Notes under the pieces: generated by a model
Told to the model about the DNA's origin: nothing
Seen by the model: the letters and a program-made list of their open reading frames with translations, nothing else
Databases searched by the model: none
Origin: Planctomycetota bacterium
Lineage (GTDB): Bacteria; Planctomycetota; UBA1135; GCA-002748355
Direction: 5' to 3'
NCBI GenBank assembly: GCA_020638795.1
Contig: JACKHW010000003.1
Location: forward strand, 338,027-402,026
Length of the DNA: 64,000 nt
Shown: positions 3,639-57,186 of the stretch, piece after piece
How the letters are laid out: each line of letters opens with the position of its first letter
How positions within the stretch are numbered: position 1 is the first letter of the stretch
Program-made: the position numbers and the translations under genes

Positions 3639-4565
3639 TCAGCGCGCGCGTTTCGTCTGGGCCTGGGTACTCGAGTACTCGGCGAGTTCGCGCAGACCCG
3701 CTAGGTAGACGACTCCTTGCACACCGCGCCGGGATCGCCTCGCGCCCGAGCCACCGACCAGGATGCTCACGTCGTTCGGCAGAACGGCGCGGAGACGACG
3801 AACGGCGCGATCGGTCTGCAAGCCGCCCGAAGCCAGACTCACCGACAAGGCCAAGACCTGCGGACGCACCTCGAGCGCGGCCGCCTCGATCTCTTCGATC
3901 GGGAGTTCGGTACCGAAGCTCACGACTCGATAACCGGCGACCGAGAGCGTGAGTGCAGCCATCTGGAGTCCCAACCCGTGTCGCTCTCCCGGCAATGTCG
4001 CCATGACCGCTGTCCGCACATCACTCGTGTGGACCGCAACACGGTGCTCGTTCTCGACCGTCGTGCGCATCGTACGCAGCACATCGTCGACCGCCTCGGA
4101 CAAGAAGTGCTCATGGCGCACCGCGATCGACCCGTCCGCCCAGCGGCTGCCGAGGACATCCAGCAGCGGGCCGAGCACGTCATCGAGAAACGCTACGGGA
4201 TCCGTCGCATTGCGCTGGGCTGTCTGCAGTTCAACGCGCAGGGCTTCCCGACGAAACCGTCCGACCGCTTCGAAAATCGCTTCGAACTCGCTCGGACGAA
4301 CGTCACGTCCGCGTACAGCATTCGTCAGCAGATGGTCGAGTTCGCGTTCGGACAGCGTGAGCAGCTTCCCCGGACGATGCCCATGGGACATTGCCTCTGC
4401 GACCTTGCGAACCAAGCGGAGTTCCGCGGCGCCATAGCGACGATGACCGGACGGTAGTCGAACCGGAACCGGCAGGCCGTATCGCCGCTCCCACACCCGA
4501 ATCGTCTCCGGTGCGATTCCCGTGCGCTCCGCGAGTTCTCCGATCGAGTAGAGCTTGTCCGTCAT
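3639..4565 (-). CDS. carH: CarH/LitR-type MerR-family regulator with an adenosylcobalamin-binding (photoreceptor) domain
   Basis: Track ORF 3639..4868 was trimmed to the ATG at 4565. The MerR HTH is MTDKLYSIGELAERTGIAPETIRVWERRYGLP. WADGSIAVRHEH matches the Wx9EH motif, and PGERHGLG matches the E/DxHxxG B12 lower-ligand motif. Confidence 0.8.
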   Translation of the reverse strand: MTDKLYSIGELAERTGIAPETIRVWERRYGLPVPVRLPSGHRRYGAAELRLVRKVAEAMSHGHRPGKLLTLSERELDHLLTNAVRGRDVRPSEFEAIFEAVGRFRREALRVELQTAQRNATDPVAFLDDVLGPLLDVLGSRWADGSIAVRHEHFLSEAVDDVLRTMRTTVENEHRVAVHTSDVRTAVMATLPGERHGLGLQMAALTLSVAGYRVVSFGTELPIEEIEAAALEVRPQVLALSVSLASGGLQTDRAVRRLRAVLPNDVSILVGGSGARRSRRGVQGVVYLAGLRELAEYSSTQAQTKRAR

Positions 4566-4597
4566 CGAGTGTGAGTCTTGGGGCGACAGTGTCCACG

Positions 4598-5191
4598 TCA
4601 AGACTCCGCCTGACGTGACCCCACGGGTAGAACGCGACGTGCGATGCTGCCGAGGAGAGGCACGGCGATCGCCCAGATCACCGCGAGCGAGACCAAGGCC
4701 ATCGTACGGGATTCGCCGAGCCTGATCGCTCCGAGCTTCTCGCCTGCCACGAATGCGAGTGGACCACCGACGGCGCCGAACAGCAACCCGACAGCTTTGC
4801 GACGAGACAACCATGCGAGACTGAGCGGCAACGTCGTTGCGAACGCGGCCCAGAGGCATGCCATCCAAGCCAGATCGACGACCGCCACGCTGCGCGCCGC
4901 ATCCACAGAGGCGAAGGTGTACACACCTGATCGTGACCCGACGAACTCGAGGAGGGCACCCGCACAGGCGGTACCAAGCACGAAGAGGAGAGCGTTGCGA
5001 GCCCGGCGCGCCGATCGTTCACGCGTCGCGACGTTCGCGGGCGCAATACCGCGCCGCGACTCGGTGAGGACGAACAGTGCCACGACGATCGCAGTCACGA
5101 CGATGCCGAGCCACGGCATACCGCGAGCAGCACCCACGACGCATGCGAACCATGCGATCTGGAATGCCACCATGTTGATCACGTTGCTCAT
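4598..5191 (-). CDS. DUF2878-like integral membrane protein
   Basis: A 197-aa multi-TM protein (MVAFQIAWFACVVGAARGMPWLGIVV...). It abuts the stop of the CFA-family gene, the usual position of DUF2878. Confidence 0.55.
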   Translation of the reverse strand: MSNVINMVAFQIAWFACVVGAARGMPWLGIVVTAIVVALFVLTESRRGIAPANVATRERSARRARNALLFVLGTACAGALLEFVGSRSGVYTFASVDAARSVAVVDLAWMACLWAAFATTLPLSLAWLSRRKAVGLLFGAVGGPLAFVAGEKLGAIRLGESRTMALVSLAVIWAIAVPLLGSIARRVLPVGSRQAES

Positions 5192-6484
5192 TCAGGCGCC
5201 GCTGCGTGAGCCGGGAGCGAGCACCATCTGATGGAGTCCGAGTTGTCGCTCTCTGAAACCGGCCTCGCAGTAAGCCAGATAGAACTCCCACAGTCGTCGG
5301 AATCGCTCGTCGTATCCGAGCGCAGCGATCTTGGATCGCGCGGCCACGAAGCGCTCTCGCCAGATCCGCAATGTCGCCGCGTAGTGCTCCGCGAAGTCGT
5401 TGGTCTCGACGAGGCGGAAGTCGGTCGCGCGACTCATCGCGTTCACCATGGCCCCGACGGAAGGTATGGCCGATCCCGGGAAGACATGACTCTGAATGAA
5501 GTCGACCTGCTTCCGCGCTTGGTCGTAGTACTGATCCGCGATCGTGATCACTTGCAGTCCGACGCGGCCATCGTCCGCGACCAAGCGCCTGCAGGCCTCG
5601 AAGAACTTGGGTAGGAATCGATGCCCCACGGCCTCGATCATCTCGATCGAAACCACGGCATCGAATCCACGCGCGTTGGCGGCGTCGGAGCGCGCGAGAT
5701 CACGGTAGTCGCGTTCGAGGATGCGGATTCGATCCTCGAGCCCGGCCTCGCGCACGCGCTGGCGTGCGATGAGTGCTTGTTGCGCCGAGATCGTCGTCGT
5801 GGTCACACGGCAGCCGTATTCGCCCGCCATGTGGAGCGCCATCCCCCCCCAACCTGTGCCGATTTCACAGACTTCGTCACCCGGGCAGAGTGCGAGGTGG
5901 CGACAGAGGCGATCGTACTTCTCGCGTTGCGCAGCTTCGAGCACGTCGAACGTCGCCGTCTGCGGATGCTCGAAGAGCGCACTACTGTATGTCATCGTCG
6001 GGTCGAGCCACGCCGCGAAGAACTCGTTGCCGAGGTCGTAGTGCGCGGCGATGTTCCGCTTCGACCCGTTCTTGGTGTTCCGTCGCAGAGCGTGACCGAC
6101 GTGCAATACGGGCTGGATACAACGCGCAAGGCCGCGATCGAGCGCCTCGAGCACGTGTCGATTCCGAACGACGAGTGCTAGACAAGTCCCGAGGTCATCG
6201 ACGTCCCAATCTCCGCGGATGAAGCTCTCGGCAGCGCCGACCGTCCCGCCGAAAGCCATGGATGTCCAAAAGCGCGGGTCTCGCACGCGAACTTCGGGAG
6301 GTTGCTCCGCGCCATGCAACGGTGTTCCGAACGTGAACTCCGCCTCGCCCTCGACATCGCGGAGCTTCAGCGCTCCGAACTGCATTCGAGACAAGCGATC
6401 GACGACGCGGCTCCGCACGAGCGAACGAGCCTTGCGCGCGACGAACCCGGATCGAGTTTGGTGAACGGGAACGAACTCGGTCAT
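5192..6484 (-). CDS. cyclopropane-fatty-acyl-phospholipid synthase family SAM-dependent methyltransferase (CfaS/UfaM-like)
   Basis: Contains AHYDLGNEFFAAWLDPTMTYSSALF, the SAM motif VCEIGTGWGGMALHMA, and YLAYCEAGF at the C-terminus. It overlaps the upstream gene by 4 nt. Confidence 0.85.
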   Translation of the reverse strand: MTEFVPVHQTRSGFVARKARSLVRSRVVDRLSRMQFGALKLRDVEGEAEFTFGTPLHGAEQPPEVRVRDPRFWTSMAFGGTVGAAESFIRGDWDVDDLGTCLALVVRNRHVLEALDRGLARCIQPVLHVGHALRRNTKNGSKRNIAAHYDLGNEFFAAWLDPTMTYSSALFEHPQTATFDVLEAAQREKYDRLCRHLALCPGDEVCEIGTGWGGMALHMAGEYGCRVTTTTISAQQALIARQRVREAGLEDRIRILERDYRDLARSDAANARGFDAVVSIEMIEAVGHRFLPKFFEACRRLVADDGRVGLQVITIADQYYDQARKQVDFIQSHVFPGSAIPSVGAMVNAMSRATDFRLVETNDFAEHYAATLRIWRERFVAARSKIAALGYDERFRRLWEFYLAYCEAGFRERQLGLHQMVLAPGSRSGA

Positions 6485-7323
6485 CGGAAACTCTCGGTGC
6501 TCTCGTTGCTCGGGGCACGGATCTGGGCACGCCGCCCAGCGGCCTCTCTCGGATGGTCGAAGAAGGGCACGCGCTTCAAGCGCAGCCTGAGTGCTTGCCA
6601 GTAGATGCCCAGGACGACTTTCCCCGTCTGGAACGGATAGCGGACGAGCGTCGAAGCGATCCGCGACGTCGTGATCGGTCGACGAATGAGATCGAGGGTC
6701 GCATCGAAGACGAGTTGCCCTGCACGGAGATTCTGCATGTGCACGACGACAGTCTCGTCCGAAAGATGGAAGACCCAGTCATAGGTCATGTCCATGGGCA
6801 TGAAGGGCGAGACATGGAACTGCTTGTCGAAGCGGAATCGCTTCGTGCGTCGCCCCCGCTGGGCGCGCGCGTCCAGGACGTAACCATGCCGCTCACCCCA
6901 CGGTGTATTCGTGATCTCGGCCACGATGGCGACGATGCCGTCTCCAGTGCGATCGTCCGCTTGATCCCGGCAGATGTAGAAGCTCACCGGGTTTTGCCGG
7001 TACCCGAAGCTTCGCAGGTTGGTCACGAGTTCGATGCGCCCAGTCGGCGTGAAGCCGAGTTCATCGCGCACGCGATCGCGCACCGCGGTCTCGAGCGGCA
7101 CGTCGATCGGCGCGAGATAGTCGTCTCGTCGATAGCGAGCGATCGCGAAGCGCTTGTCGGAGAAGAACCAACGGCGCCGGAAGACCGCCTCGATCTCGTC
7201 GAGTGCGAGGAGCACCATCGATGCGCGGTACGAAAACGCATGCTGCACGGGGAGGCGACGTCGGTGACGCACGCGCCCCTCGAGGATCGAGCTTTGGATC
7301 GGCAAGGCCGCGGGCGCGCTCAA
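6481..7323 (-). CDS. DUF1365 family protein (UfaO-like)
   Basis: The C-terminal 280 aa of track ORF 6481..7992 read ILEGRVRHRRRLPVQHAFSYRASMVLLALDE...NPVSFYIC...HVSPFMPMDMTYDW. No ATG lies upstream of the domain. TTG at 7323 overlaps the upstream stop (TTGA), so the start is uncertain. Confidence 0.7.
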   Translation of the reverse strand: MSAPAALPIQSSILEGRVRHRRRLPVQHAFSYRASMVLLALDEIEAVFRRRWFFSDKRFAIARYRRDDYLAPIDVPLETAVRDRVRDELGFTPTGRIELVTNLRSFGYRQNPVSFYICRDQADDRTGDGIVAIVAEITNTPWGERHGYVLDARAQRGRRTKRFRFDKQFHVSPFMPMDMTYDWVFHLSDETVVVHMQNLRAGQLVFDATLDLIRRPITTSRIASTLVRYPFQTGKVVLGIYWQALRLRLKRVPFFDHPREAAGRRAQIRAPSNESTESFR

Positions 7324-8597
7324 AGCGACCTCCCGAGTTTCTCGCAAACGCGCAATGCACTCCAGACACCATCTTCGTGGAAGCCATTGCGCCAATATGC
7401 GCCGACGAAGTGCGTGCGGCGCCGACCGTCGATTTCGTCCCAACGCTCGACGGCCTCGGTGCTTCGCGGCGTGAACAGCGGATGCTCGTAGTTCCAGCGC
7501 CCGAGCACGCGCTTCTTCTGGTCCTTCGCCTCGAGCGCCCGAAGACGCTCGTACGAGCCCAGCGACACGCAGTAGTCGGTCGGTGCTTGCAGCGACTGCA
7601 GGGTGTTCATGTGGTAGGTGACCCTGGCGGGCTGCGAGCCTTCCCCGAAGGTCTTCGAATCGATCCGGTAGTTCCAGCTCGCGAGCGCTCGCTCGCGAAC
7701 CGGCAACAGGTCTCGCCCCTGGTGGAGCGTCGTTTCGTTGGCCGAATACGGGATCGCGCCCAGAACCTCGCTCTCGAGAGCGTCCGCGTCGGTCAGCATC
7801 GCGAGGCTCTGGTCTGCGTGACTCGCGAGGATCACCCGATCGAAGCGATCGACAGCCCCGCGGGCATGCACGCTCACACCGTCCGCATGACGTGTGATCG
7901 AGGTCACCGGAGTCTCGATGCGGATGCGATCGCGAAAGGCCACGGTCATCGCCTCGACATAGCGCCGACTGCCCCCATCGATCACGTACCACTGCGGTCG
8001 ATCGTCGATCTCGAGCATGCCGTGATTCTCGAAGAACCGCGCGAAGAAGCGCGCCGGGAAGTCGAGCATCGAAGCCGCATCCGTGCTCCAGATGGCGGAG
8101 CCCATCGGAATCAAGTAGCGCTCACGAAAGGCGCGTCCGTAACGCCCGCGATCGAGAAACTCCCCCAATGAGCATTCGGTCCCGTTCGAGGCCAACGCGC
8201 GCGCCTCGCGGTTGAAGCGCAGCACGTCCCACAGCATCCCAAAAAAGCTGGGACGAAGGAGATTCCGCTTCTGGACGAAGATCGACCCCAGATCCCGGCC
8301 GTTCCACTCGAGACCGTTGCGCTCGTCGTGGACCGAGAAACTCATCTCGCTGGCCCGCGTCGCGACGCCGAGCCGTTTCAGCAGCGCGAGAAAGGACGGG
8401 TAGGTCCGGTCGTTGAATACGATGAATCCCGTGTCGACGGGATGCACGCCAGCCTCATCGCACACGTCGACCGTGTGCGTGTGCCCGCCGATCCAATCCG
8501 ACGCCTCGTAGACGACGACATCGTGGCTCTCATGCAGGAGGTAGGCACAGACCAACCCGGAGATGCCCGCACCGATGATCGCGATGCGGTCGCTCAT
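7320..8597 (-). CDS. NAD(P)/FAD-dependent oxidoreductase, amine-oxidase fold (UfaD-like)
   Basis: N-terminal dinucleotide fold MSDRIAIIGAGISGLVCAYLL...VYEASDWIGGHTHTV. Confidence 0.8.
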   Translation of the reverse strand: MSDRIAIIGAGISGLVCAYLLHESHDVVVYEASDWIGGHTHTVDVCDEAGVHPVDTGFIVFNDRTYPSFLALLKRLGVATRASEMSFSVHDERNGLEWNGRDLGSIFVQKRNLLRPSFFGMLWDVLRFNREARALASNGTECSLGEFLDRGRYGRAFRERYLIPMGSAIWSTDAASMLDFPARFFARFFENHGMLEIDDRPQWYVIDGGSRRYVEAMTVAFRDRIRIETPVTSITRHADGVSVHARGAVDRFDRVILASHADQSLAMLTDADALESEVLGAIPYSANETTLHQGRDLLPVRERALASWNYRIDSKTFGEGSQPARVTYHMNTLQSLQAPTDYCVSLGSYERLRALEAKDQKKRVLGRWNYEHPLFTPRSTEAVERWDEIDGRRRTHFVGAYWRNGFHEDGVWSALRVCEKLGRSL

Positions 8598-8610
8598 GAC
8601 GCGCGACCGC

Positions 8611-9564
8611 TCAGGCTGCGCGGCGCGGCGGTCTCGTCTGACTCGCGTTGCGTCCCTGCTCGAGAATCCGCTCTGGGACCGGTTGCAAGTCCCAGACGAC
8701 TCCGAAGAACGCGAGGCCCCGCAGGACCCAGTAACACGGATCGTATTCCCACCAGTAGAACCCCTGCCGCGTGGACGCGGGATAATAATGATGGTTGTTG
8801 TGCCAACCTTCGCCGAGCGTCAAGAGCGCCAGGAACCAATGATTGCGACTCGTGTCCCGAGTTTCGAAGCGCCGCTTCCCGAGCAGATGGGCGAGGCTGT
8901 TGATCGAGAACGTCGCGTGGAAGAGCACGACGGTCGAGACGACGAAGCCCCACACGAAGAGCTGCCACGCAGTCGTGCCGAGGCTCGGAGCGAAGACCTC
9001 GAGGATCCAGCCGAGCGCGAAGATCGACACCCCGAGGAGCGTCGGCACGATCCAATCGAAGCGATCCAGGAACCGCAGCTCCGGGAACCGCGAGAGGTCA
9101 CGCACACGCTCGGTCTTCGTCAGGAACCCGTCCCCGGTCAGAAACCAGCCGACGTGACTGCGAAACAGCCCGTGCTGCATCGGCGAGTGCATGTCGACGG
9201 CCTTGTCCGAGTGTGCGTGGTGATGTCGGTGCCAGCCTGCCCACCAGAGCGGCCCTCGTTGCGCAGCCGAATTGCCGATCACGGCAAACGCGAACTGGGC
9301 AGCGCGGGACGTCTTGAACGTCTTGTGGCTGAAATACCGATGGTAGAAGCCCGTGATCGCGAACATGCGCACGAGGTACAGCACGACGGCAGTCGTGACT
9401 GCGAACCAGCTCCAACCGACCAGGAAGACGGCGAAACAGCCGGCATGCAGCAGGAAGAACGGCAAACAGCGCATCCACTCGATGCGGTGCCCGTTTTGCC
9501 GTCCCATGCGTCGCCGCGACCGAACGTCGCCGTCGAACCACTGTAAGATGTTGCGGATCGTCAT
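8611..9564 (-). CDS. acyl-CoA (delta-9 type) membrane fatty acid desaturase
   Basis: Three His boxes are present: HRYFSHKTF, WHRHHHAHSD and GEGWHNNHHYYP. Confidence 0.85.
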   Translation of the reverse strand: MTIRNILQWFDGDVRSRRRMGRQNGHRIEWMRCLPFFLLHAGCFAVFLVGWSWFAVTTAVVLYLVRMFAITGFYHRYFSHKTFKTSRAAQFAFAVIGNSAAQRGPLWWAGWHRHHHAHSDKAVDMHSPMQHGLFRSHVGWFLTGDGFLTKTERVRDLSRFPELRFLDRFDWIVPTLLGVSIFALGWILEVFAPSLGTTAWQLFVWGFVVSTVVLFHATFSINSLAHLLGKRRFETRDTSRNHWFLALLTLGEGWHNNHHYYPASTRQGFYWWEYDPCYWVLRGLAFFGVVWDLQPVPERILEQGRNASQTRPPRRAA

Positions 9565-9725
9565 CAGAAAGGGCGAGGAGCTTAGTAGCTGGGTCGCTCG
9601 ATCGGGATCAGGAATCCGAGAGCTTTGTGCGACTGTGACACCGGAGCGCAGGGGGTCGCTCAGAGGATCTGGAATGCCTTGTCTCTTGACAGTTCGGCGA
9701 ATCGCCCCCAGAGCCTGAGGAGATC

Positions 9726-10883
9726 ATGACTGCAGCTCCACAAACCGACCGTCCCCCGGTGGGTCGCATCGATGCCATGCGCGACGAGCCGTCGCCGGTG
9801 CCGGGCCGACCGGCATGGTATGAAGGTCTGCTCGATGATGGCCGGTTGCCGGATGCCGCAATCCGCTTCGGGATTCGAAAACTGTTGCGTGCGCGGCTTC
9901 GGCTCGAGGCGAAGGGCACGCTGGAAGAGCGGAGTGAACGGTTTCGCGAGTTCCTCGCGAGTCTCGACGAAAGCCCGATCGCCATCGAGACCGCGGCCGC
10001 CAACGACCAGCACTACGAGGTCCCGACGCGGTTCTTCGAGCTCGCACTCGGCCCACGGCTCAAGTATTCGAGCTGTCTGTTCCCGAGCGCGACGACGACT
10101 CTCGCCGAGGCCGAGGAACACATGCTCGACCTCGTGGCACGGCGCGCGCAGCTCGAAGACGGGCAGAGCGTGCTCGATCTCGGCTGCGGCTGGGGGTCGT
10201 TCTCGCTGTGGGCCGCGGAGCGTTTCCCGAAGTCACGCTTTCTGGCCATTTCCGGCAGCGCGTCCCAACGCAGCTTCATCGAGGAGCGCGCGGCACGACT
10301 CGGCTTGTCGAACCTCACCGTCCAAACGATGGACGCCAATCGCTTCGAGAGCGATCGCAGCTTCGATCGAGTCGTCACGATCGAGATGCTCGAGCACATG
10401 AAGAACTATCGGGAGCTCTTCCGGCGCATCGCGGCCCGGATGCGACCCGGTGCACTGTGCTTCGTGCACGTCTTCGTGCACCGCGAGTTCGCCTATCCGT
10501 TCGTTGCTGACGGCGATGACGACTGGATGGCTCGCCATTTCTTCACGGGTGGCAACATGCCGTCCGATTCGTTGCTCCTACGCTATCAGCGCGATTTGGA
10601 CGTGATCGACCACTGGCGCGTCTCGGGATCCCATTACGCGAGGACTGCCGAGGGGTGGCTGCAGAACCTCGACGCGAACCGCGACGCCGTCTTCGATTGC
10701 TTTCGCACCAGTTATGGTGCGGGCCTCGAGCCGCGCGCCGCGAAGGCCGAAGCGACTCGCTGGCTCCATCGTTGGCGCATCTTCTTCATGGCCTGTGCCG
10801 AACTGTGGGGCTTCCGCGGTGGCTCGGAGTGGTTCGTGTCTCATTACCTGTTCGAAAAACCGGCAAAGGGCGGTCTCGAGTGA
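9726..10883 (+). CDS. second CFA-synthase-family SAM-dependent methyltransferase
   Basis: Contains [28 protein letters not shown] and the SAM motif [20 protein letters not shown]. An alternative ATG lies at 9777. Confidence 0.8.
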
Positions 10884-11440
10884 TCTGGATCTATATCGCA
10901 GTTTGCGTGGTCTTCGTCCTCGTGCTCGCGGCGAAGCTCGACGACGTCCGGTCGACGACTCTCGATATCGGCGATCTCGCGCCGGACTTCGCATTGCGTG
11001 CCCAAACCGGTGAGAGCATTCGATTGCACGATCTCCTCGCGCGCGGACCCGTGGTGCTCTACTTCTACATCCAGGACGCGACTCCTGGCTGAACGGTTCA
11101 AGCACGCGGCTTCCGTCACGAGTTCGCACGATTCGAGCAACTCGGGGCAGCCGTCGTCGGGGTCAGTTCGGACTCCGTCCACTCACACGATGCCTGGGCT
11201 GATAAAGAATGCCTGCCCTTCCCGCTTCTCGCCGACGACGACGGTCGCGTGCGCAAGCTCTACGGCGTGCCACGCAGCCTGTTCGGTCTGCTGCCGGGAC
11301 GACTGACGTTCGTGATCGCGGCCGACGGGCGGATCCGCGCGATCGTGGGGCATCAATTCCGACTTCAGACGCACGTGCGGCGCGCTCGCGAAGGCGTCGA
11401 ATCCGTCGCTCGTGCGACTCCCCAACTCGCGCGTCATTGA
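10880..11440 (+). CDS. BCP/PrxQ-type peroxiredoxin with in-frame UGA (11090-11092) at the peroxidatic Cys position; predicted selenocysteine, or otherwise a pseudogene
   Basis: A single frame reads ...[56 protein letters not shown]...[39 protein letters not shown]...[16 protein letters not shown]. Compare E. coli BCP, TPGCTVQAC. The GTG start at 10880 overlaps the upstream stop, and the start is uncertain. Confidence 0.6.
11093..11144 (+). other. candidate SECIS-like hairpins just downstream of the in-frame UGA
   Basis: Hairpin 1: ACGG(11093-96) pairs with CCGU(11113-16) and AAGC(11100-03) with GCUU(11109-12), with loop ACGCG. Hairpin 2: CGAGUU(11119-24) pairs with AACUCG(11139-44). Folded by eye only. 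Confidence 0.3.
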
Positions 11441-11456
11441 TGGGGCGAGAACCGGA

Positions 11457-11843
11457 TCAACACGGCATTTCGAGGTGGTCCGGCGCACAAACTTCGACAC
11501 GGTTGTTCGAGGGGTCGGTGAGGTAGCACGAACGCGAGCCGTCGCGGTGCGTGACGAGTTCGCCGAACGAATCCGCGTCCTCACGGATGATCGCGTGATG
11601 CGGCGGATGCTGCCCAGGCATCACGAATGCGAGATCGCAATTCCGGAAGCGCAGCAAGGCCCAGGTCGAATCGCGATATGCGACCGAACATGAGAACTGC
11701 TCGAGATACCAATCGACGGTCGCATCCAAATCCTTCACTGGGATCGCGACGTGGTGCAGGACGTCGAGAAGTTCTCGATCCCTTTGGGGATCCGTGCTTC
11801 GGTGTTCCGTCGTTTCCATGGCTTCTTCCTCCATCGGTGACAT
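11457..11843 (-). CDS. VOC (glyoxalase/bleomycin-resistance/dioxygenase) family protein
   Basis: Contains LLDVLHHVAIPVKDLDATVDWYLEQF...CYLTDPSNNRVEV. The start is ATG 11843, 11834 or 11819. It is divergent from the photolyase gene. Confidence 0.55.
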   Translation of the reverse strand: MSPMEEEAMETTEHRSTDPQRDRELLDVLHHVAIPVKDLDATVDWYLEQFSCSVAYRDSTWALLRFRNCDLAFVMPGQHPPHHAIIREDADSFGELVTHRDGSRSCYLTDPSNNRVEVCAPDHLEMPC

Positions 11844-11912
11844 GCATTCGTCGCCTTCCATTCTCGAGATGCGCATGCTCCACACGTGGCAAGCGCGAAC
11901 CAGAGGAGTGAC

Positions 11913-13388
11913 ATGAGCGTACCAGGCGAGCGTATTCGTCGCTCGAACGACCACGAAGTGCGCAAGGACGGGCGTTATGTCCTCTACTGGATGACGAGCA
12001 ATCGTCGCTTGCGCTCGAACTTCGCCTTGGACCGGGCTGCCGAACATTGCAAGGCGATGGATCTTCCACTGGTCGTGCTCGAAGCCCTTCGACTCGACTA
12101 TCCGTGGGCGAGCGAACGCCTACATCGCTTCGTCATCGCCGGCATGCGGGACAACGCGCAGGCTGCCGCGACGATGCAGGGCACGTTCTACTACCCCTAC
12201 GTCGAGACGAAGCGCGGTGCGGGGAAAGGACTGCTCGCGGCTCTGGCACGCGATGCTGCCGTCGTCGTGGGCGACGATTTCCCGTGCTTCTTCTTGCCGA
12301 AGATGCAGCAGGCAGCTTCGAAACAGCTCGACGTGCGACTCGAGCTGGTCGACGCGAACGGCCTGTATCCGATGCACGCGACCGACCGCGTCTTTCCGTC
12401 GGCGCACACGTTTCGTCGCCATCTCCAGAAGACCCTGCCAGCCCACCTGCCGGCGACTCCGACGATCGAGCCGTTGCGCCATGTCCAAGACGCTCCGGCC
12501 GTGGCGATCGATCGAGAGATCTTGGAACGCTGGAGGGCCACGGACCCGGAGTCCCTGCTCGATAAGGGCATCGATGCACTCGAGTTCGATCTCGATGTCC
12601 CTGCCGGTGCGGCACGTGGCGGTTCCGTCGAGGCCGGAAAGCAGCTCGAGCGTTTCGTTCGCGCGCGGTTGTCGCGGTACGCCGACTCCCGCAACGCGGT
12701 CAGCGAGCCGGCGGCGAGCGGCCTGTCGCCGTATCTACACTTCGGCCACATCGGGATCCACGAGATCCTGCACGCACTCCTCGAACACGACGGCGTCGAC
12801 CGTGCTCGATGGATCGAAGAACGCGCCGCTGCGAATGTCACCGGGAGTCGAGAAGGCTGGTGGGGTCTCTCGAACAACGCGGAGGCCTTTCTCGACGAAG
12901 CCGTCACGTGGCGCGAGGTCGGATACAACTTCGCGTCCCATCGCGACGACTACGATCGCTACGACTCGCTTCCGGACTGGGCGAAGTCGACGCTCGCCGA
13001 TCATGCGAAGGACGCACGCCAGACGCTCTACGACCTCGAGCAACTCGATGCTGCCGAGACGCACGACCCCGTGTGGAACGCTGCACAGCGCGAGCTCGTG
13101 ACCGAAGGGCGCATGCACAACTATTTGCGCATGCTGTGGGGCAAGAAAGTCCTCGAATGGACGCGCTCCCCACGCGATGCCGCGGACATCCTGATCGAAC
13201 TCAACAACCGCTACGCTGTCGACGGTCGCAACCCCAACTCGTACTCGGGCATCTTCTGGGTCCTCGGTCGCTACGACCGCGCGTGGGGACCCGAGCGCCC
13301 GATCTTCGGCAAGATTCGCTACATGAGTTCGGACAGCACGCGCCGCAAACTCGACCTCGCGGACTACCTCGTGCGCTACGGGCGTTAG
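11913..13388 (+). CDS. phr: class II deoxyribodipyrimidine (CPD) photolyase
   Basis: Contains DGRYVLYWMTSNRRLRSNFALDRA and the C-terminal GRMHNYLRMLWGKKVLEWT...DGRNPNSYSGIFWVLGRYDRAWGPERPIFGKIRYMS. The ATG at 11913 is preceded by GAGGAG. The track start 11886 is a GTG. Confidence 0.9.
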   Translation: MSVPGERIRRSNDHEVRKDGRYVLYWMTSNRRLRSNFALDRAAEHCKAMDLPLVVLEALRLDYPWASERLHRFVIAGMRDNAQAAATMQGTFYYPYVETKRGAGKGLLAALARDAAVVVGDDFPCFFLPKMQQAASKQLDVRLELVDANGLYPMHATDRVFPSAHTFRRHLQKTLPAHLPATPTIEPLRHVQDAPAVAIDREILERWRATDPESLLDKGIDALEFDLDVPAGAARGGSVEAGKQLERFVRARLSRYADSRNAVSEPAASGLSPYLHFGHIGIHEILHALLEHDGVDRARWIEERAAANVTGSREGWWGLSNNAEAFLDEAVTWREVGYNFASHRDDYDRYDSLPDWAKSTLADHAKDARQTLYDLEQLDAAETHDPVWNAAQRELVTEGRMHNYLRMLWGKKVLEWTRSPRDAADILIELNNRYAVDGRNPNSYSGIFWVLGRYDRAWGPERPIFGKIRYMSSDSTRRKLDLADYLVRYGR

Positions 13389-13467
13389 ACGCCCGGCGGC
13401 GGTGCTTGTGTTCTGAGTCAGATTGCCGCGCGCTCGTGCAGCGGCATTCGCGCTGTCGCTTCCCGTG

Positions 13468-13527
13468 CTGTCCCTTCTCTCGCTGTCCCTTCTCTCGCTG
13501 TCCCTTCCCTCGCTGTCCCTTCCCTCG
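13468..13527. repeat. four tandem 15-bp units CTGTCCCTTC(T/C)CTCG
   Basis: Units lie at 13468-82, 13483-97, 13498-512 and 13513-27, with a degenerate copy just upstream. The other three copies of the flanking element carry a single unit. Confidence 0.85.
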
Positions 13528-13658: not shown

Positions 13659-13820
13659 ATAGTTGTCGTTGCAACGATCGAAATGCACATCCGACTAAGC
13701 GCATTCGATCGTTGCTTTCGCAGAAGTGTTCGGTAGCATGCTTCGAACAACATGTGCTGATTCAAAAGTCGCGTCTCTAACCGCGTCGACTCCGTGACGA
13801 CTCCACTCAGGGAACGCAGG

Positions 13821-14510
13821 ATGAGATCTCGAACGAAGAGGCGCGGAGTACAGGGAATGCTGTTCGGGCCGGGGCGCGGCGGGAAGCGACTCGGCGCCGG
13901 TCGCAAACCGAAGGGTGAACGCGCGGGAGTCTCCCACGCGACTCGCACGAAGCTCGCGAAGCGCTTCCCCGTTCATGTCACGATGCGCATCGCCTCAGGC
14001 CTGCCGTCGCTGCGGGATAATCACACCGAACAGTCCTTGCGCGCGGTCTTCTGCGCGATGAAGCCTCGCCGCGGCTTTCGAATCGTGCACTACTCGATCC
14101 AGACCAATCACGTGCATCTGATCGTCGAAGCGGAGAGCACGACCGCGCTCTCGCGTGGCATGCAATCCCTCGCGATCCGCATGGCGCAGACGCTCAATCA
14201 CGACTGGGGCCGCAAGGGCAAGGTCTTCGGTGATCGCTACCACGCGTCGATCCTCGATAGCCCGCGACGCGTGCGCAACGCGATCCTCTACGTGCTCAAG
14301 AACGCGTGGAAGCACGGGCGAGACGTGCGCGGCGTGCTCGACCGGTTCGCGTCGGGATGGTGTTTCACGGGATGGCGAGAGCGGGTCAAGGTGAACGGGG
14401 TCGACGACTTCGAAGTCCCGGTCGAGGATCCACGGACCTGGCTCCTGCGTGTCGGTTGGAAGAAGCACGGCCGCATCGGCATCCACGAGCTGCCGAAGTC
14501 GTCGCCGTGA
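13821..14510 (+). CDS. IS200-like / REP-associated tyrosine transposase (HUH Y1 family), copy 1
   Basis: The HUH motif is NHVHLIVEA and the catalytic Tyr region is ILYVLKNAWKHG. The ATG at 13821 follows GGAACGCAGG; the track start 13794 is a GTG. It is about 97 percent identical by eye to the copy at 57187..57876. Confidence 0.85.
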   Translation: MRSRTKRRGVQGMLFGPGRGGKRLGAGRKPKGERAGVSHATRTKLAKRFPVHVTMRIASGLPSLRDNHTEQSLRAVFCAMKPRRGFRIVHYSIQTNHVHLIVEAESTTALSRGMQSLAIRMAQTLNHDWGRKGKVFGDRYHASILDSPRRVRNAILYVLKNAWKHGRDVRGVLDRFASGWCFTGWRERVKVNGVDDFEVPVEDPRTWLLRVGWKKHGRIGIHELPKSSP

Positions 14511-15284: not shown

Positions 15285-15602
15285 GGTGCACGTCTGATTC
15301 CATTGCATGCGACAACGCAAGTCGCCATGCCGGCCATGCGTGAACCATGAAGTCGGATAGTGTCAGCAGTGTAGTCGGTCTGAACTGTCAGCTATGTACC
15401 CGGTCTGCACTCCCATGTCGCGAGCCCGCGCCGCGATGCGCATCTGCCGAATCAGAAATCGAACGTCCACGCGACAGTCTCGAATCGAGGTCGCGAGTCG
15501 AAGACCGCTTCGATTCAGCGTAGTCAAACGCGGTCGTCTGTACATCTGCGCGCGCCATATTGCAGCACGCACGAAAGCCTGCGCGTAGGCACCAACCACA
15601 AA

Positions 15603-27654: not shown

Positions 27655-28875
27655 TCACTTCAGGATCGTGAACTTGACGGCGTTGGACCCGGAAGCGGCG
27701 ATGACCGAGCAGCGATCCGCCCAGAGGAATTGCGCGTAGAGCGTGAGTCCGACGAGCCCTCCGTCGTTCGGAATCGGCAATCTCGTACGCGTTCCTCCAC
27801 CACTGTCGGAGGCGACAGGGAGCCACAACGTCGCCGGATCGAACGGATCGATGTTGAGGTTCAGCACGCCGAGGAACAACACGGGAGGCTCCGCACTCTT
27901 GATCCCGAGCACGAGACGCCCGAACGTTGACGGCAAGGTGTTGGCCTCCGTGATCGCGAAGCTCGCATTGCCGAGCGTCGGACTGCCCGTCACACCGACG
28001 CGCGGGTTGCCGAGGCAACCCGGTGTTGCGACACCATAGAACATGACGCCGGGCATCGTGACCGCGCTGAAGCCCGTCACGGGGGCCTGCACAGGCAGGA
28101 TCGACAAGAAGGTCGTCCTGCCGTTGGTCAGGTCCACTTCGAACAGCGCGCTGCTCGACACGTTCTGGCCAGGCGACGTCACGACCAAGTAGCCCTTGTC
28201 GTCGGTTCCGGCGATGTCGAACGACACGTTCTCGCCAACGTTGATGCCGAGTGAACCGACGGTGTTGAGGACGCCCGCGTTCGGTGGATCTTGGCGAACG
28301 AGCGTGTCGAAGTTGCTGTCGATCCCGTACAGCACGGTCGTCGTGACGTTCGCCCGCGAGTTCGTGTATGCGCTGGCGACAATGTTGGGGTTCAAGCCGA
28401 ACTTCGCATCGTTCGCGGCATACGAGAGCGTTCCGTCGACCGCGACGACCGCGCCGGTGTCCGGATGGGCTCGCAGATCTTGATCCGCATTGGACGTGAT
28501 GCGGATGCGATCGACGGTCGGATTGAAATCGAAACCGAAGCTCGAGCCATTGAGCGCCGGCGAGAGCGTCGCGCCTACCGGCGTGGCGGCGCCGTTCGTC
28601 ACGTCGATCGTGTAGATGCGATGGCTGCTGCCGAGTGCGTACAGCGCCGGCTGATTCGCGGCGGATGCCGGTCGGAAGTCGATGCCGAGGATCTGTTCGT
28701 CCTTGGCGAGACCGGTGATCTGCGAGTCGCTGACGACACGTCCCGGCAAACCGATGTTGACGCGCACGAGGTGCATGTCCTCGGTCGTCATGAAGAAGTC
28801 TTGTGCGAACAAGCAAGGCGACGCAATCGACACCAATGCTGTGAGGGAACGGGCGAGAGTCTTGGAAGTCTTCAT
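27655..28875 (-). CDS. DUF4394 domain-containing secreted protein
   Basis: Contains GIDFRPASAANQPALYALG...FGFDFNPTVDRIRITSNADQDLRAHPDTGA. The ATG at 28875 overlaps the upstream stop (ATGA). Confidence 0.8.
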   Translation of the reverse strand: MKTSKTLARSLTALVSIASPCLFAQDFFMTTEDMHLVRVNIGLPGRVVSDSQITGLAKDEQILGIDFRPASAANQPALYALGSSHRIYTIDVTNGAATPVGATLSPALNGSSFGFDFNPTVDRIRITSNADQDLRAHPDTGAVVAVDGTLSYAANDAKFGLNPNIVASAYTNSRANVTTTVLYGIDSNFDTLVRQDPPNAGVLNTVGSLGINVGENVSFDIAGTDDKGYLVVTSPGQNVSSSALFEVDLTNGRTTFLSILPVQAPVTGFSAVTMPGVMFYGVATPGCLGNPRVGVTGSPTLGNASFAITEANTLPSTFGRLVLGIKSAEPPVLFLGVLNLNIDPFDPATLWLPVASDSGGGTRTRLPIPNDGGLVGLTLYAQFLWADRCSVIAASGSNAVKFTILK

Positions 28876-29570
28876 GTGCGTTCGTGGAAGAAAGGGAGTG
28901 TGGGGTCGAAGGGCCGAGGCACACCGCGGGCGGTGCGTTGGGCGAAGAGGAATCGGTAGATGAACAGGGTGAGAACGACACCCAGCGACGCGCCGAGGTA
29001 GGTCCACCGGCACGTGGATGTCGACGCTGAAGACGATGCCGTGATGGGTCCGAGCGCAAGCTCGCACGTCGGGTGTTCGGCATCGAGCAGGCAGCCCCGG
29101 TGCTCTCGACCAGCCGCCACGTCGGACACGATCACTCGATGCCCTCGAGGTAGCGAATCGAAGATCCGCGCTTCGATCGACACGCGATCGACATTCGTGG
29201 CAAGCGCGAACCGACCGACGAGCACGAAGGCCGAATCACTTGGCTCGAACCGCATCGACCAGGACTCGGCGATCTTTCGATCGATCTCGAGGGATCGCGC
29301 CGTCATCGAGCGAAGGCACTCGAGACGGAGCGCGCGATCCTCGTTCGTGAGCGTCCCGGCGGGCGACGAGGCAAGGCTCTCATCGTGCACGGACCACGAA
29401 ACGTCGAGGAACGCCGGCGTAGTGGCGTTGCGTCGGACATCGAGCGTACTGAGCCCCGGGTCGTGTGGTGGCACCGCTCGCGCTGTGACGCTGAGCAAGG
29501 TTCCGGACAGCAAGGGCAAGAGCGCTGCCGTACGTGAAATCGAGCGTGGCATCGAGCGAAGGAGGACCAT
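28872..29570 (-). CDS. hypothetical protein with signal peptide and a single C-terminal TM
   Basis: Starts MVLLRSMPRSISRTAALLPLLSGTLLSVTARA and then reads VPPHDPGLSTLDVRR.... The C-terminal TM is YLGASLGVVLTLFIYRFLF. No family was recognised with confidence. Confidence 0.45.
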   Translation of the reverse strand: MVLLRSMPRSISRTAALLPLLSGTLLSVTARAVPPHDPGLSTLDVRRNATTPAFLDVSWSVHDESLASSPAGTLTNEDRALRLECLRSMTARSLEIDRKIAESWSMRFEPSDSAFVLVGRFALATNVDRVSIEARIFDSLPRGHRVIVSDVAAGREHRGCLLDAEHPTCELALGPITASSSASTSTCRWTYLGASLGVVLTLFIYRFLFAQRTARGVPRPFDPTLPFFHERT

Positions 29571-29591
29571 GGTGCGACTCGCTCGAGAACC

Positions 29592-31040
29592 TCAATCGTG
29601 ACGGTGATTGCGGCCGTTGTGCGGTACCCCGCCGTACGGGAACACCTTGTTGTAGACCGCATCGTTTGCGTCCACGTTGTCGCCCGCCAAGCGGATGACT
29701 GGAGGACTCGTACGCAAGTCGCTGATGACGGCCGAGACTCCGATGTCGATGACGTCGTCACCGAACCTCCTGCCGTTGGGCCACCCACTCGGCACTTGAC
29801 CCTGAGCGAGCGGGCTATAGCTCGTGTCACCACCGAAAATCGAGAGGCGTGAATAGCCAGGATCGTCGGGGGTCGCGACGTGGTTGGGTCCACCACCGGC
29901 GAGCGGCACCGGATTCGTCGAGAGGTCGACCTTGATCAGGTCGGGAATGAAGATGCCCACGAGATCCGAACGGTTCGTTTCGATTCCGGGGATCGGGTTG
30001 CCCTTGAAAACGATGGCGTTGAGTAGTTTCGCGAGCTCGGGGCTATCCGCGTACTTCTTGAAGACGAGAGGATCGTCACTCGGCGGGCAGCGGTTGTAGA
30101 GATCCTTGTCGGCGATCGCGACGAACGCCTCACAGAACAGCGGATTGCCCTGACGACCGATCTGGACCCAATCACCGACTTCGATATCGCCGAGCGACTT
30201 GATTCGAACCGTGAACGTCTTGCGATACGTCGTTGCCCACACTCCGACCTGTTGCCTGTCACCGCCGAGCTGTGCCATCGGGACCGACAGGTTGATCGTG
30301 TGGACATTGAAGCCGCGTTGAGAGTCCCGAGCCGCTCCCTTGCCCCGCAGCTGGAGCAGGTCGAACACGGCTTGAATGTCGCCGTAGAACCCGTCTTCGC
30401 GTTGGCCACACCAGCTGTAATGGCCCGTCGCGAGCGCAGCCACGGTCTGGCGTGTGTATTTGTCGAGCTTCGTGACGCTATCGACGCCGATCTTGGCGAG
30501 GCCTTCACCCTGTGCCGTGTTGTACTCGGGAGTCGCAATGCCTTGATTGTTGGGTGGGACCACGCCCGACCCGAGCCTCACGACACCACTCGAGGACACA
30601 CGCGTCACCGCGTACCGCTGCGTGCGGTTCTGATCCGCGTCGTCGACGTCGTTGATGACACCGAGGTACGACTGGAGGATCGTGCCCTGCGTCTTGTACG
30701 AAGTCTTGAACTCGAAGAAGTAACTGATCGTCGGCAGGCCGCGTGCCACGTCCTTGCCGGTAGCGACGTGCAACGCGTAGAGCACGCGATCGTCGAAGTC
30801 GTATTTGTTCGGGCCGATTCCCGGATCCTCGAACGGATAGACCGATACCGCCATCTGCAGGGCTTTCTGGCCGGAGGGATCCTTGCCGACGAACGCATAC
30901 ACGTCCGTCGTATTCGCGGCGTCGTCGAGCGTGATCAACGGCGCGTCCATGTGGCTCGACGCCATGGCCGGAGCGGCCAGTGCCGCGAGTGACGCCATCA
31001 GACCTGAATACTTGATTGAGTGCCTCGAGAGCATCGTCAT
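29592..31040 (-). CDS. DUF4331 domain-containing secreted protein
   Basis: The mature N-terminus ASSHMDAPLITLDDAANTTDVYAFV matches the SSHREAP...D.TD.YAF hallmark. The start is the ATG at 31040 or 31034. Confidence 0.85.
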   Translation of the reverse strand: MTMLSRHSIKYSGLMASLAALAAPAMASSHMDAPLITLDDAANTTDVYAFVGKDPSGQKALQMAVSVYPFEDPGIGPNKYDFDDRVLYALHVATGKDVARGLPTISYFFEFKTSYKTQGTILQSYLGVINDVDDADQNRTQRYAVTRVSSSGVVRLGSGVVPPNNQGIATPEYNTAQGEGLAKIGVDSVTKLDKYTRQTVAALATGHYSWCGQREDGFYGDIQAVFDLLQLRGKGAARDSQRGFNVHTINLSVPMAQLGGDRQQVGVWATTYRKTFTVRIKSLGDIEVGDWVQIGRQGNPLFCEAFVAIADKDLYNRCPPSDDPLVFKKYADSPELAKLLNAIVFKGNPIPGIETNRSDLVGIFIPDLIKVDLSTNPVPLAGGGPNHVATPDDPGYSRLSIFGGDTSYSPLAQGQVPSGWPNGRRFGDDVIDIGVSAVISDLRTSPPVIRLAGDNVDANDAVYNKVFPYGGVPHNGRNHRHD

Positions 31041-31048
31041 CTCCTGGA

Positions 31049-32359
31049 TCAAGAGTCGCCGAACGACTTCCGCAGAAGCGTCCGTTCGGAAGGGAACAAC
31101 ACGTGCTGCACCGCACGTACCCGCTTCACGAGGTCTTGGACCTCGTCCGGAGATGCGTTGGCAGCACGAGCCACGAGTGCACCGTGCAGCAGAAGTCGGG
31201 CGTCCGGATTTCCCGTCGCGAGTACCTCCTGCGACATGGTCCATGCCTCCGCATAGTTGCCGCGACGACTGAGCGCGAACGCCATCGCACTCTTCGTCAT
31301 CGCGTCACACCGTTGTTCGAGTTCGCGCTCGAGCAGGCCATGTGCATCGTCGAGTCGCCGATTGCGAGTCGTCAGGTACAGCGCGAATGTGCGCGGGTCG
31401 TCTCTCGACCCGCTCGCCTCGAGGGATGACTCGACGCTGCGAGCTCTCGATTCGTCGCCCGATGCTCGGAGCGTATCGGCGAGCGCCCATCGGTACTCGG
31501 GAAGCGGCGCGTACTCGACAGCTCGTTCCAAGTCGACGATCGCGTCGCGCGTGCGGCCCAGTTCGTTCGCGATCGCGGCACGTACGAGAAGAGCGCCAGG
31601 GGAAGCCTCGAACGTGGACAGCGCTTCGGAGGCCCATTTGCGCGCTCGCTCGAGATCGTGACGATGAAACGCGAGGCGTGCGAGTCCGGTCAACGCCCAC
31701 GCGAGCGCCTCGGGTGCCCGTCGACTACCGGCGGCGACGGCATTCTCGAACAATTCGAGGGCGCCGTCGATATCGCCGGCGAGCCATCGCACATGGCCCG
31801 CTCGCACATACGACTGAAGGCATGGACGCAAGTCGAGCATGCGTTGATACGCCTCCGACGCTTCGACGACGGCGCCGCGATCCACGAGCACATCGCCGAG
31901 AAGCCCCCAGTCGAACGGGTTGCCTCGCATTCCGATGAGCTCACGAGCGATACGCTCGGCATCCACGAACTCGTGCATGCTTTGTGCTGCGTGTCCACGG
32001 ATCAGTAGCCCGGAGGGACGAGACTCGCCAGCTAGGCACAACGCGTTGCCGCACGCGCGAGCGATGCGATAGAAGCCGTCGTCGTGCGCTTCACGCGCCT
32101 TGGCGACGAACATCCAAGCGAGCTTCTCGACAAGGACGTCGGCACGCCCCGAAGACGCGATATCCGATTCGATGCGAGTTTGTACATCGCGAATGTCGGC
32201 ATCGAGAGCGGATTCGCCACGATGCTCGATCAGTGCAAGGCTCAGTGCTTCGCGCATGCGGGACGGCTTGTTCGAGTTCGCCGCACCCACCGCATCGAAG
32301 TCGCACGCAACGAGCGAGAGCGTGCACGTCAGAAAGGCGATCCGGTTGCGTGTCTGCAT
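31049..32359 (-). CDS. TPR-repeat lipoprotein
   Basis: The ATG at 32359 gives MQTRNRIAFLTCTLSLVAC (lipobox), followed by multiple TPR-like helices. The track start 32371 is a GTG that lies inside the predicted -10 box, so 32359 is preferred. Confidence 0.65.
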   Translation of the reverse strand: MQTRNRIAFLTCTLSLVACDFDAVGAANSNKPSRMREALSLALIEHRGESALDADIRDVQTRIESDIASSGRADVLVEKLAWMFVAKAREAHDDGFYRIARACGNALCLAGESRPSGLLIRGHAAQSMHEFVDAERIARELIGMRGNPFDWGLLGDVLVDRGAVVEASEAYQRMLDLRPCLQSYVRAGHVRWLAGDIDGALELFENAVAAGSRRAPEALAWALTGLARLAFHRHDLERARKWASEALSTFEASPGALLVRAAIANELGRTRDAIVDLERAVEYAPLPEYRWALADTLRASGDESRARSVESSLEASGSRDDPRTFALYLTTRNRRLDDAHGLLERELEQRCDAMTKSAMAFALSRRGNYAEAWTMSQEVLATGNPDARLLLHGALVARAANASPDEVQDLVKRVRAVQHVLFPSERTLLRKSFGDS

Positions 32360-50317: not shown

Positions 50318-50359
50318 CGTCGAGACCAGGACGTCGAGACCGTGACGTCGAGACCGGGA
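50318..50359. repeat. three in-phase tandem 14-mers CGTCGAGACCNNGA between lgt and rpmB
   Basis: cgtcgagaccagga (50318-31), cgtcgagaccgtga (50332-45) and cgtcgagaccggga (50346-59). Confidence 0.85.
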
Positions 50360-56754: not shown

Positions 56755-56880
56755 CGAGCGCTAGCGCTGCTTCGTCGGGTTCCCGCGCGTCGCGCGTGAT
56801 TGGATCTGCTGGACCGCTCGTGCTGCGGCGTCCGTGCTGGTCGTGGCAGTGGTGTCCGTTGCAGTGCTGTCCCTTCCCTC

Positions 56881-57027: not shown

Positions 57028-57186
57028 AAAGTTGACGTAGCGATCGAAGAGCACATCCAACTTCGCGTATTCGATCGTTGCTTTCATGGAAGTGTGCGGT
57101 AGCATGCTTCGAACAACATATGCTGAATCAAAAGACACGTCGGTAGCCGCTTCCAATCTGTGGTGGCTCCACGCTGGGAACGCAGG

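Follow-up and report, generated by a model that had tools for sequence, protein, structure and literature searches.

A peroxiredoxin of the BCP/PrxQ type with a conserved in-frame UGA at its peroxidatic position, a predicted selenoprotein of a planctomycete and its relatives

In a stretch of 64,000 nucleotides from a Planctomycetota bacterium (hereafter the window; GenBank assembly GCA_020638795.1, contig JACKHW010000003.1, positions 338,027 to 402,026), the reading frame of a BCP/PrxQ peroxiredoxin (Prx) is interrupted by a TGA at the place of the peroxidatic cysteine (CP). Is this codon an error, the end of a truncated gene, or a signal for selenocysteine (Sec)? A preliminary description of the window had favoured the last of these. 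The analysis presented here leads us to conclude that the gene is very probably a genuine Sec-decoded BCP/PrxQ peroxiredoxin. The coordinates of the features are collected in Table 1.

The UGA-interrupted PrxQ frame itself is confirmed. Translation of 10880-11440 gives a single internal stop, the TGA at 11090-11092, before the terminal TGA at 11438-11440, and the translation is an exact match to the peptide in the preliminary description. The two pieces into which the gene was said to be split, 10655..11092 and 11249..11440, are both present in the mechanical list of open reading frames (ORFs). The GTG start (10880-10882) overlaps the TGA stop (10881-10883) of an upstream gene of 385 amino acids (aa) in the four nucleotides GTGA. 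With the stop read as Cys, the product matched the Pfam family AhpC-TSA (PF00578, E=6.6e-34) over residues 30-154 of 186 and profile positions 1-123 of 124, which is the whole domain. The top matches in the Protein Data Bank (PDB) were 3drn (Bcp1, 4.7e-28), 5epf, a chain deposited only as 'Peroxiredoxin', and 5enu, followed by BCP chains, and in these the UGA falls on the peroxidatic residue; AhpC-type chains were weaker (1e-11 to 1e-13). The best NCBIfam model was that of BCP (NF006960, 94 bits, under its equivalog cut-off of 140), while the PrxU equivalog NF040737 reached 58 bits versus a cut-off of 270. In the public annotation the gene appears as a 'redoxin domain-containing protein' of 61-70 aa and a 'peroxiredoxin' of 114 aa.

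Comparison with E. coli BCP places the UGA on the catalytic residue, as had been proposed. The fetched K-12 sequence reads YFYPKAMTPGCTVQACGLRD, so the motif quoted in the preliminary description was right, and BLASTP puts the stop of the window gene on the first Cys (CP) of this protein, in agreement with the PDB alignments. The two proteins are 38% identical over 143 residues and have the same TPG-C/U-TVQA. Both the Thr and the catalytic Arg are kept, the latter in GRLTFVI (HRISFLI in E. coli BCP). The canonical PxxxTxxC is not matched, since the Thr is present and the UGA stands at CP but the Pro is missing (E. coli: YFY-P-KAMTPG-C). The second Cys of E. coli BCP, the resolving Cys (CR), aligns with an Arg of the window protein.

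To find relatives, a protein collection was searched first with the truncated N-terminal piece and next with a profile built from fragments of this kind. These searches returned many AhpC-TSA 'proteins' of 40-80 residues that end exactly at ...TPG. Contigs were fetched for nine cluster representatives (L096, L097, L098, to which L099 is identical, L100 and L103-L107), and in all nine the CP codon is a TGA that closes the fragment, after which the frame continues through the domain to a normal stop. Ten distinct lineages, including the window and L001, have TGA at the CP codon (10/10), and pairwise protein identity is 50-94% among the five TGA lineages for which it was computed. All ten share the motif [I/V/L]-x-D-A-T-P-G/A-U, in which Ile, Val or Leu takes the place of the motif Pro, and the catalytic Arg is conserved in all of them. 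The continuation T-x-Q-x-R-x-F-R is found in eight; L104 (S-R-Q) and L107 (R-R-Q) have no Thr after the U. The window and its nine relatives all have the Arg at the CR position from which a 1-Sec enzyme had been predicted earlier. As no other Cys is conserved among the ten lineages, a 1-Cys-type (1-Sec) mechanism is expected and not the atypical 2-Cys type of E. coli.

When orthologues were aligned at the UGA, as the preliminary description had recommended, the ten clade members had TGA and about 50 more distant homologues had TGC or TGT. Scans of genomes and metagenomes with a C-terminal query gave ~90 loci, all of them distant Cys homologues except HKST-UBA76. A rough neighbour-joining tree, built with five of the TGA forms and the 59 best Cys homologues, has the five in a group of their own. 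Every member of the clade is annotated as fragments. That ten diverged lineages have TGA at this one codon puts its placement beyond chance.

A divergent member of the clade is L107 (1236-1763 of Logan SRR24270832), which reads DATPA-TGA-RRQAREFRR, with Ala for Gly before the UGA and Arg for Thr after it. The start of its Prx gene is overlapped by a DUF1722/2-thiouracil-desulfurase gene.

The RNA after the UGA was examined with RNAalifold on 100 nucleotides (nt) from the ten lineages. Two hairpins, H1, a candidate bacterial Sec insertion sequence (bSECIS), and H2, were predicted in nine of the ten. L107 has no H2 and no clear H1, which may reflect a different signal or decay. H2 is nearly invariant at the nucleotide level in 9/10 lineages, and in L104 an H2 pair is kept because the replacement of Val by Ile (GUC to AUC) goes together with a synonymous change from GAC to GAU. 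Of the cells of this structure 89.5% were paired versus 83.6% in column shuffles, cells changed on both sides numbered 10 versus 3.3, and the covariation score was 0.243 versus 0.153; for none of the three did any of 500 shuffles reach the observed value, but these numbers are supportive and not proof, because the structure was derived from the same related sequences on which it was scored. Slid controls were paired to at most 52.5%. The 56-nt H1 segment had a z of -2.7 in the window and of -1.5 to -2.7 across the TGA forms, compared to a mean z of -0.65 in 46 Cys homologues and of ~-0.1 in those of similar G+C (read off the table). H2 is without counterpart in 38 of 39 Cys homologues, the other, L027, folding comparably but in a different shape.

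The codons of H2 tell a similar story. Those for G-V-S-S-D-S at 11159-11176 (GGR GUC AGU UCG GAC UCC) are identical and in the same place in L096-L106, and they include the Ser codon AGU, which is rare in this genome of 64% G+C. The pairwise codon difference in H2 was 0.13 (n=5) versus about 0.46 elsewhere. From such codon identity amid synonymous sites that are nearly saturated it follows that selection acts on the RNA and not only on the protein. For H1, the corresponding value for synonymous-site conservation was 0.38 versus 0.45-0.48 elsewhere (n=8), which is not significant.

How well do these hairpins agree with known signals? The published bSECIS model asks for a loop of 3-9 nt, an upper stem of 4-16 base pairs (bp), a G in the first two loop positions, a distance of 16-37 nt from the UGA and a minimum free energy (MFE) of <= -7.5 kcal/mol, and some bacterial SECIS elements deviate from it (PMC13188914). 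The 7-nt loop, 5-bp apical stem, 34-nt spacing and MFE of about -23 kcal/mol of H1 all fit. With H1 folded, H2 would be only about 16 nt of single strand away from the UGA. We consider that H1 fits the model only loosely and that the case for a SECIS appears favourable.

Several results, in addition to the dependence of the covariation numbers on related sequences, weigh against Sec insertion. Single-sequence folds of 71-77 nt after the UGA were no stabler than shuffles (z -0.16 to -0.32), so that the informative results were those for the 56-nt H1 segment and for the comparison of lineages. The rule for a G in the H1 loop is obeyed in only six of the ten lineages, and the window obeys it only with its uppermost G-C pair open. 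The loop of H2 does start with A-G-U, but at 72 nt its distance to the UGA is beyond the canonical 16-37 nt. Among ~40 ORFs scanned in the 64-kb window, to which the search was confined, Pfam found no selA, selB or selD, and ARAGORN found no tRNA or tRNA-Sec in it. No second TGA-interrupted gene was present in the window, L096, L097, L098 or L100, where only ordinary gene boundaries were seen.

With these points in mind the other explanations can be weighed. One is that the TGA arose by a TGC-to-TGA substitution, either in a pseudogene or as a sequencing or assembly error. The two codons are one base apart and annotation treats the locus as fragments, and the preliminary description had kept a nonsense mutation or sequencing error as its caveat. 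However, the base is identical in independent assemblies and samples. The Logan assembly of SRR12358676 (L002) has the identical sequence including the TGA, and the same split gene is found in the NCBI metagenome-assembled genome GCA_020638775.1 (L100; N-terminal fragment ~98% identical) and in GCA_020426005.1 (isolate HKST-UBA76, L001/L003; about 94-95% identical). Between the window and L001 ~9% of the bases differ and the TGA is unchanged, with 23 synonymous and 5 non-synonymous changes after it; the ratio of non-synonymous to synonymous substitution rates (dN/dS) is 0.067 in this frame and >5 in the other two. For most of the deeper pairs dN/dS was 0.10-0.17 after the UGA versus 0.17-0.22 before it, at a dS of ~1 or more, which is near saturation; the close pair L105 and L106 had a higher ratio after the UGA (0.42). 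Both halves are thus under purifying selection of similar strength and are therefore translated in one frame. Since the TGA has been kept down to ~50% identity and across such saturated synonymous sites, with no extra stop or frameshift in any of the ten lineages, the caveat is removed and an origin by error or decay is effectively refuted. The same data bear on a truly split or truncated gene, which would encode a membrane peptide of 70 residues and a C-terminal part that is untranslated or re-initiated. Two pieces are indeed called by gene callers and NCBI, and L001 has a GTG two codons past the TGA. This restart codon is not conserved, though: as second codon past the TGA the window has GTT, L001 GTG, L096 ATT, L097 CTG and L098 TGG. 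The next in-frame start in the window, at 11249, would remove a third of the fold. Purifying selection acts on the codons directly past the UGA in the original frame, and either piece alone would be without the catalytic residue. We regard a split gene as very improbable.

A full-length protein could also be made by read-through without Sec, if a near-cognate tRNA or other recoding inserted Trp, Cys or Gly at the UGA and the protein used this residue or served as a non-catalytic form. The lack of Sec machinery in the 64-kb window would agree with this, as would a window hairpin that does not strictly obey the bSECIS loop rule, and selection downstream shows translation past the UGA but not which residue is inserted. 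On the other hand, the UGA coincides exactly with the redox-active residue, as is characteristic of Sec/Cys pairs. With Trp or Gly at this place peroxidase activity would be lost, yet purifying selection acts on the whole domain, the catalytic Thr and Arg included; and a plain Cys is one base change away, yet the TGA was retained in ten lineages. TGA is also the ordinary stop of the Prx gene and of the genes around it, which means that the code has not been reassigned, and the structured RNA past the UGA is specific to the TGA forms. Taken together we consider read-through without Sec unlikely, and selenocysteine remains the preferred reading of the UGA.

Sec decoding has precedents in the phylum. 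The genes selA, selB, selC and selD are found in Gemmata obscuriglobus, Isosphaera pallida and two Porphyra-associated planctomycetes, and Sec-peroxiredoxins are predicted in one Porphyra-associated planctomycete (PMC4807772, Tables S8, S9). The Sec-peroxiredoxins predicted there for the Porphyra Planctomycetes P1/P2 (Kim et al. 2016, PMC4807772, Table S9), which we compared by description, resemble the window gene in phylum, in their split gene calls and in an in-frame UGA aligned to Cys in relatives; they are candidates positive in bSECISearch. For the P1/P2 genomes selABCD has been demonstrated (PMC4807772). The Sec trait is patchy but present in Planctomycetes.

A Sec-containing BCP/PrxQ is expected biology, because the TxxU Sec-peroxiredoxin (Sec-Prx) family is established and is listed under COG1225, which is the Bcp group. 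PrxU of Eubacterium acidaminophilum (2001) was the first member (PMC13188914), a Sargasso Sea survey listed 43 Sec-Prx sequences under COG1225 (PMC1088965), and a genome survey of 2006 had 12 (PMC1794560). The Sec-peroxiredoxin class itself is not new and has been described since 2001-2005. The family (PF00578) has the AhpC/TSA fold, Sec for the peroxidatic Cys in T-x-x-U, widespread Cys homologues and a stem-loop past the UGA (PMC13188914, PMC1088965, PMC1794560), all of which are seen or predicted for the window gene. In the window clade, unlike the family, the Pro of PxxxTxxU has given way to Ile, Val or Leu and CR to Arg, some lineages have a predicted anchor, and there are two conserved hairpins versus one obvious bSECIS. 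By described features, what seems particular to the clade is the loss of the Pro and the resolving Cys, the anchor in the planctomycete branch, the two hairpins, the lipid and light neighbours and the annotation as fragments. Among the relatives of the PrxQ/BCP type, 3drn is Bcp1 of S. solfataricus and 5epf is PrxQ B of M. tuberculosis. Compared to E. coli BCP, the window protein has the predicted Sec and membrane anchor and lacks a resolving Cys five residues downstream, which argues against an intramolecular disulfide mechanism.

Other truncated peroxiredoxins were noted during the searches. Among many such entries, the metagenomic AhpC-TSA fragments P0146, P0150, P0152, P0154, P0155 and P0161, of 43-58 residues, end in ...TPG and retain the canonical Pro (e.g. 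FFYPKDATPG). Judged from these fragments, there are probably more Sec-PrxQ lineages without annotation beyond the DATPG-U clade. A second family of truncated Prx-like fragments ends in ...AFYVFDFG-x-x (P0126-P0132, P0149, P0153, P0167, P0202). In L101 (3535-4080 of JGI 3300062812) the stop is a TGA at 3727-3729 and the frame runs on into AhpC-TSA (…GHA-TGA-TSELSQLG…). This is likely to be a further Sec-containing Prx-like family that is likewise annotated as fragments.

The hydrophobic N-terminus had been taken earlier as a hint of a membrane-anchored form. Its hydrophobic character is conserved in five lineages (window, L001, L096, L097 and L103), with a 17-residue Kyte-Doolittle mean of ~3.0 in the four for which it was computed, and the segment is absent from L098 and L104-L107; anchoring is predicted. 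By the positive-inside rule, the basic residues after the helix suggest that in the anchored lineages the catalytic domain faces the cytoplasm, at the inner membrane face.

Table 1. Features of the Sec-PrxQ locus in the window (predicted; positions are those of the window).
Feature	Position	Strand	Remarks
Sec-PrxQ gene (predicted)	10880..11440	+	186 codons, GTG start, UGA-Sec codon 71, TGA stop 11438-11440
In-frame UGA, predicted selenocysteine codon	11090..11092	+	aligned with CP of E. coli BCP and PDB PrxQ/BCP chains
N-terminal hydrophobic segment, predicted single membrane anchor	10880..10933	+	17-residue Kyte-Doolittle mean 2.98; basic residues after segment
Hairpin H1, candidate bSECIS	11106..11154	+	starts 13 nt past UGA; 7-nt apical loop 11127-11133, 34 nt past UGA
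Hairpin H2	11159..11176	+	6-7 bp stem, loop AGUUCG (11165-11170)
CMAS-family S-adenosylmethionine (SAM)-dependent lipid methyltransferase	9726..10883	+	Pfam CMAS E=1.7e-38; NCBIfam cyclopropane fatty acid (CFA)-synthase models below cut-off
Divergent operon, overall	4598..9564	-	
Fatty acid desaturase, divergent operon	8611-9564	-	Pfam
Amine-oxidase-like flavoprotein, divergent operon	7320-8597	-	Pfam Amino_oxidase
DUF1365, divergent operon	6481-7320	-	Pfam E=1.2e-76
CMAS, divergent operon	5192-6484	-	Pfam
DUF2878, divergent operon	4598-5191	-	Pfam
CarH-like MerR/B12-binding regulator	3639..4565	-	Pfam MerR and B12-binding; TransRegCarH E=1.6e-26 below cut-off; end coordinate borrowed from 308-aa L100 homologue
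Small glyoxalase-fold gene	about 11457-11819	-	between Prx and photolyase genes
Class 2 photolyase-like gene	11886..13388	+	NCBIfam phr2 E=2.6e-108 below cut-off; Pfam DNA_photolyase

The genes around the peroxiredoxin were also compared between lineages. Linkage to the upstream lipid methylase, to which the preliminary description had drawn attention, is not restricted to the window, as a CMAS-family gene precedes the Prx gene in six lineages (window, L001, L096, L097, L100 and L104). L097 and L100 also have the full lipid operon, and L104 has most of it. A CarH-like regulator is found near the Prx gene in L097, L100, L105 and L106, adjoining it in the last two. A photolyase-like gene was called beside the Prx gene in L001 and L096 and is probable by position in L002 and L103, where the genes at the contig ends are without Pfam record; L002, L096 and L103 have glyoxalase neighbours. 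A promoter and terminator scan of 9400-12100 gave nothing informative. From its gene content, 3639-13388 looks like a coherent photo-oxidative-stress island, and the arrangement is kept in L097 and L100 and partly in L096 and L104.

Fatty-acid hydroperoxides are the preferred substrates of E. coli BCP, and a lipid-peroxide role of the window enzyme would be consistent with this preference. The window also has the gene content of a Ufa cluster, with a UfaD-like amine-oxidase flavoprotein beside a DUF1365 (UfaO) gene and a CMAS-family methylase. In R. sphaeroides the RSP1091-1087 operon is induced by singlet oxygen, and the amine-oxidase-like UfaD and the DUF1365 protein UfaO convert what the SAM methylase UfaM has made into furan fatty acids (PMC7380195). 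The amine-oxidase/DUF1365/CMAS/DUF2878 operon of the window, together with its separate CMAS methyltransferase, resembles this operon in gene content. The regulator is CarH-like (B12/light) in the window versus sigmaE-ChrR in R. sphaeroides, and the word peroxiredoxin has 0 occurrences in the text of the furan fatty acid paper (PMC7380195). It counts against a lipid and light role that the evidence for it comes from the gene neighbourhood only, and we consider the odds of this function of the predicted Sec-PrxQ to be about even.

Elsewhere in the window, two 238-aa paralogues that are 95% identical (13794-14510 and 57160-57876, + strand) match part of the IS200-like Y1 transposase (PF01797, E ~1e-9); by sequence, the pair looks like the domesticated or REP-associated tyrosine transposase type. 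Between the photolyase gene and the first of these genes lies a 15-nt tandem repeat, CGCTGTCCCTTCCCT, at 13451-13527 (5.1 copies, 90% matches), and smaller repeat arrays are present at 15361-15411, 50318-50359 and 56834-56872. Adjoining DUF4394 (E=1e-74) and DUF4331 (E=1e-75) genes at 27655-31244 (- strand), a conserved pair, stand beside a TPR protein. The window also carries PSCyt1 and planctomycete ECF sigma domains, which fits the Planctomycetota label of close relatives. Rfam gave no family in the window at gathering thresholds.

We propose the following model for the Sec-PrxQ gene. The UGA at 11090-11092 would be decoded as selenocysteine at the peroxidatic position (T-P-G-U) by the ordinary bacterial route, in which SelB carrying Sec-tRNA(Sec) is recruited by an mRNA structure just past the UGA. 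This structure would be H1 (11106-11154), possibly together with the mini-hairpin H2 (11159-11176). As a 1-Sec peroxidase, the enzyme would attack the hydroperoxide with its selenolate to form a selenenic acid, and an external thiol, for instance a reductant of the thioredoxin type, could then reduce this acid directly. In the window lineage the N-terminal helix probably tethers the enzyme to the membrane with the catalytic domain toward the cytoplasm, and the neighbouring genes suggest that it may reduce membrane lipid hydroperoxides within a response to light or photo-oxidative stress. A more far-reaching version of the model, which we find rather doubtful as a whole, is that the DATPG-U clade represents a distinct, unannotated 1-Sec PrxQ type with a bipartite Sec signal and a CarH-controlled lipid role. 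H1 would then act as a spacer that brings H2 to the ribosome, with H2 as the real SelB-binding site, and the enzyme would be a light-induced lipid hydroperoxide reductase, membrane-tethered in some lineages, that works alongside furan fatty acid synthesis.

The members of the TGA clade are probably invisible as selenoproteins because annotation splits the gene into two meaningless fragments, and this affects Planctomycetota-like and other environmental genomes. Their recognition would add a user of Sec from surroundings exposed to oxygen and light. It would also offer a Sec/Cys pair that occurs in nature on the simplest scaffold of the peroxiredoxins, with neither motif Pro nor resolving Cys, and the two conserved hairpins are a compact test of how far a bacterial SECIS may stray from the consensus. 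Finally, a selenoenzyme linked to furan/cyclopropane fatty-acid and photolyase genes would provide a testable model of membrane peroxide repair under photo-oxidative stress.

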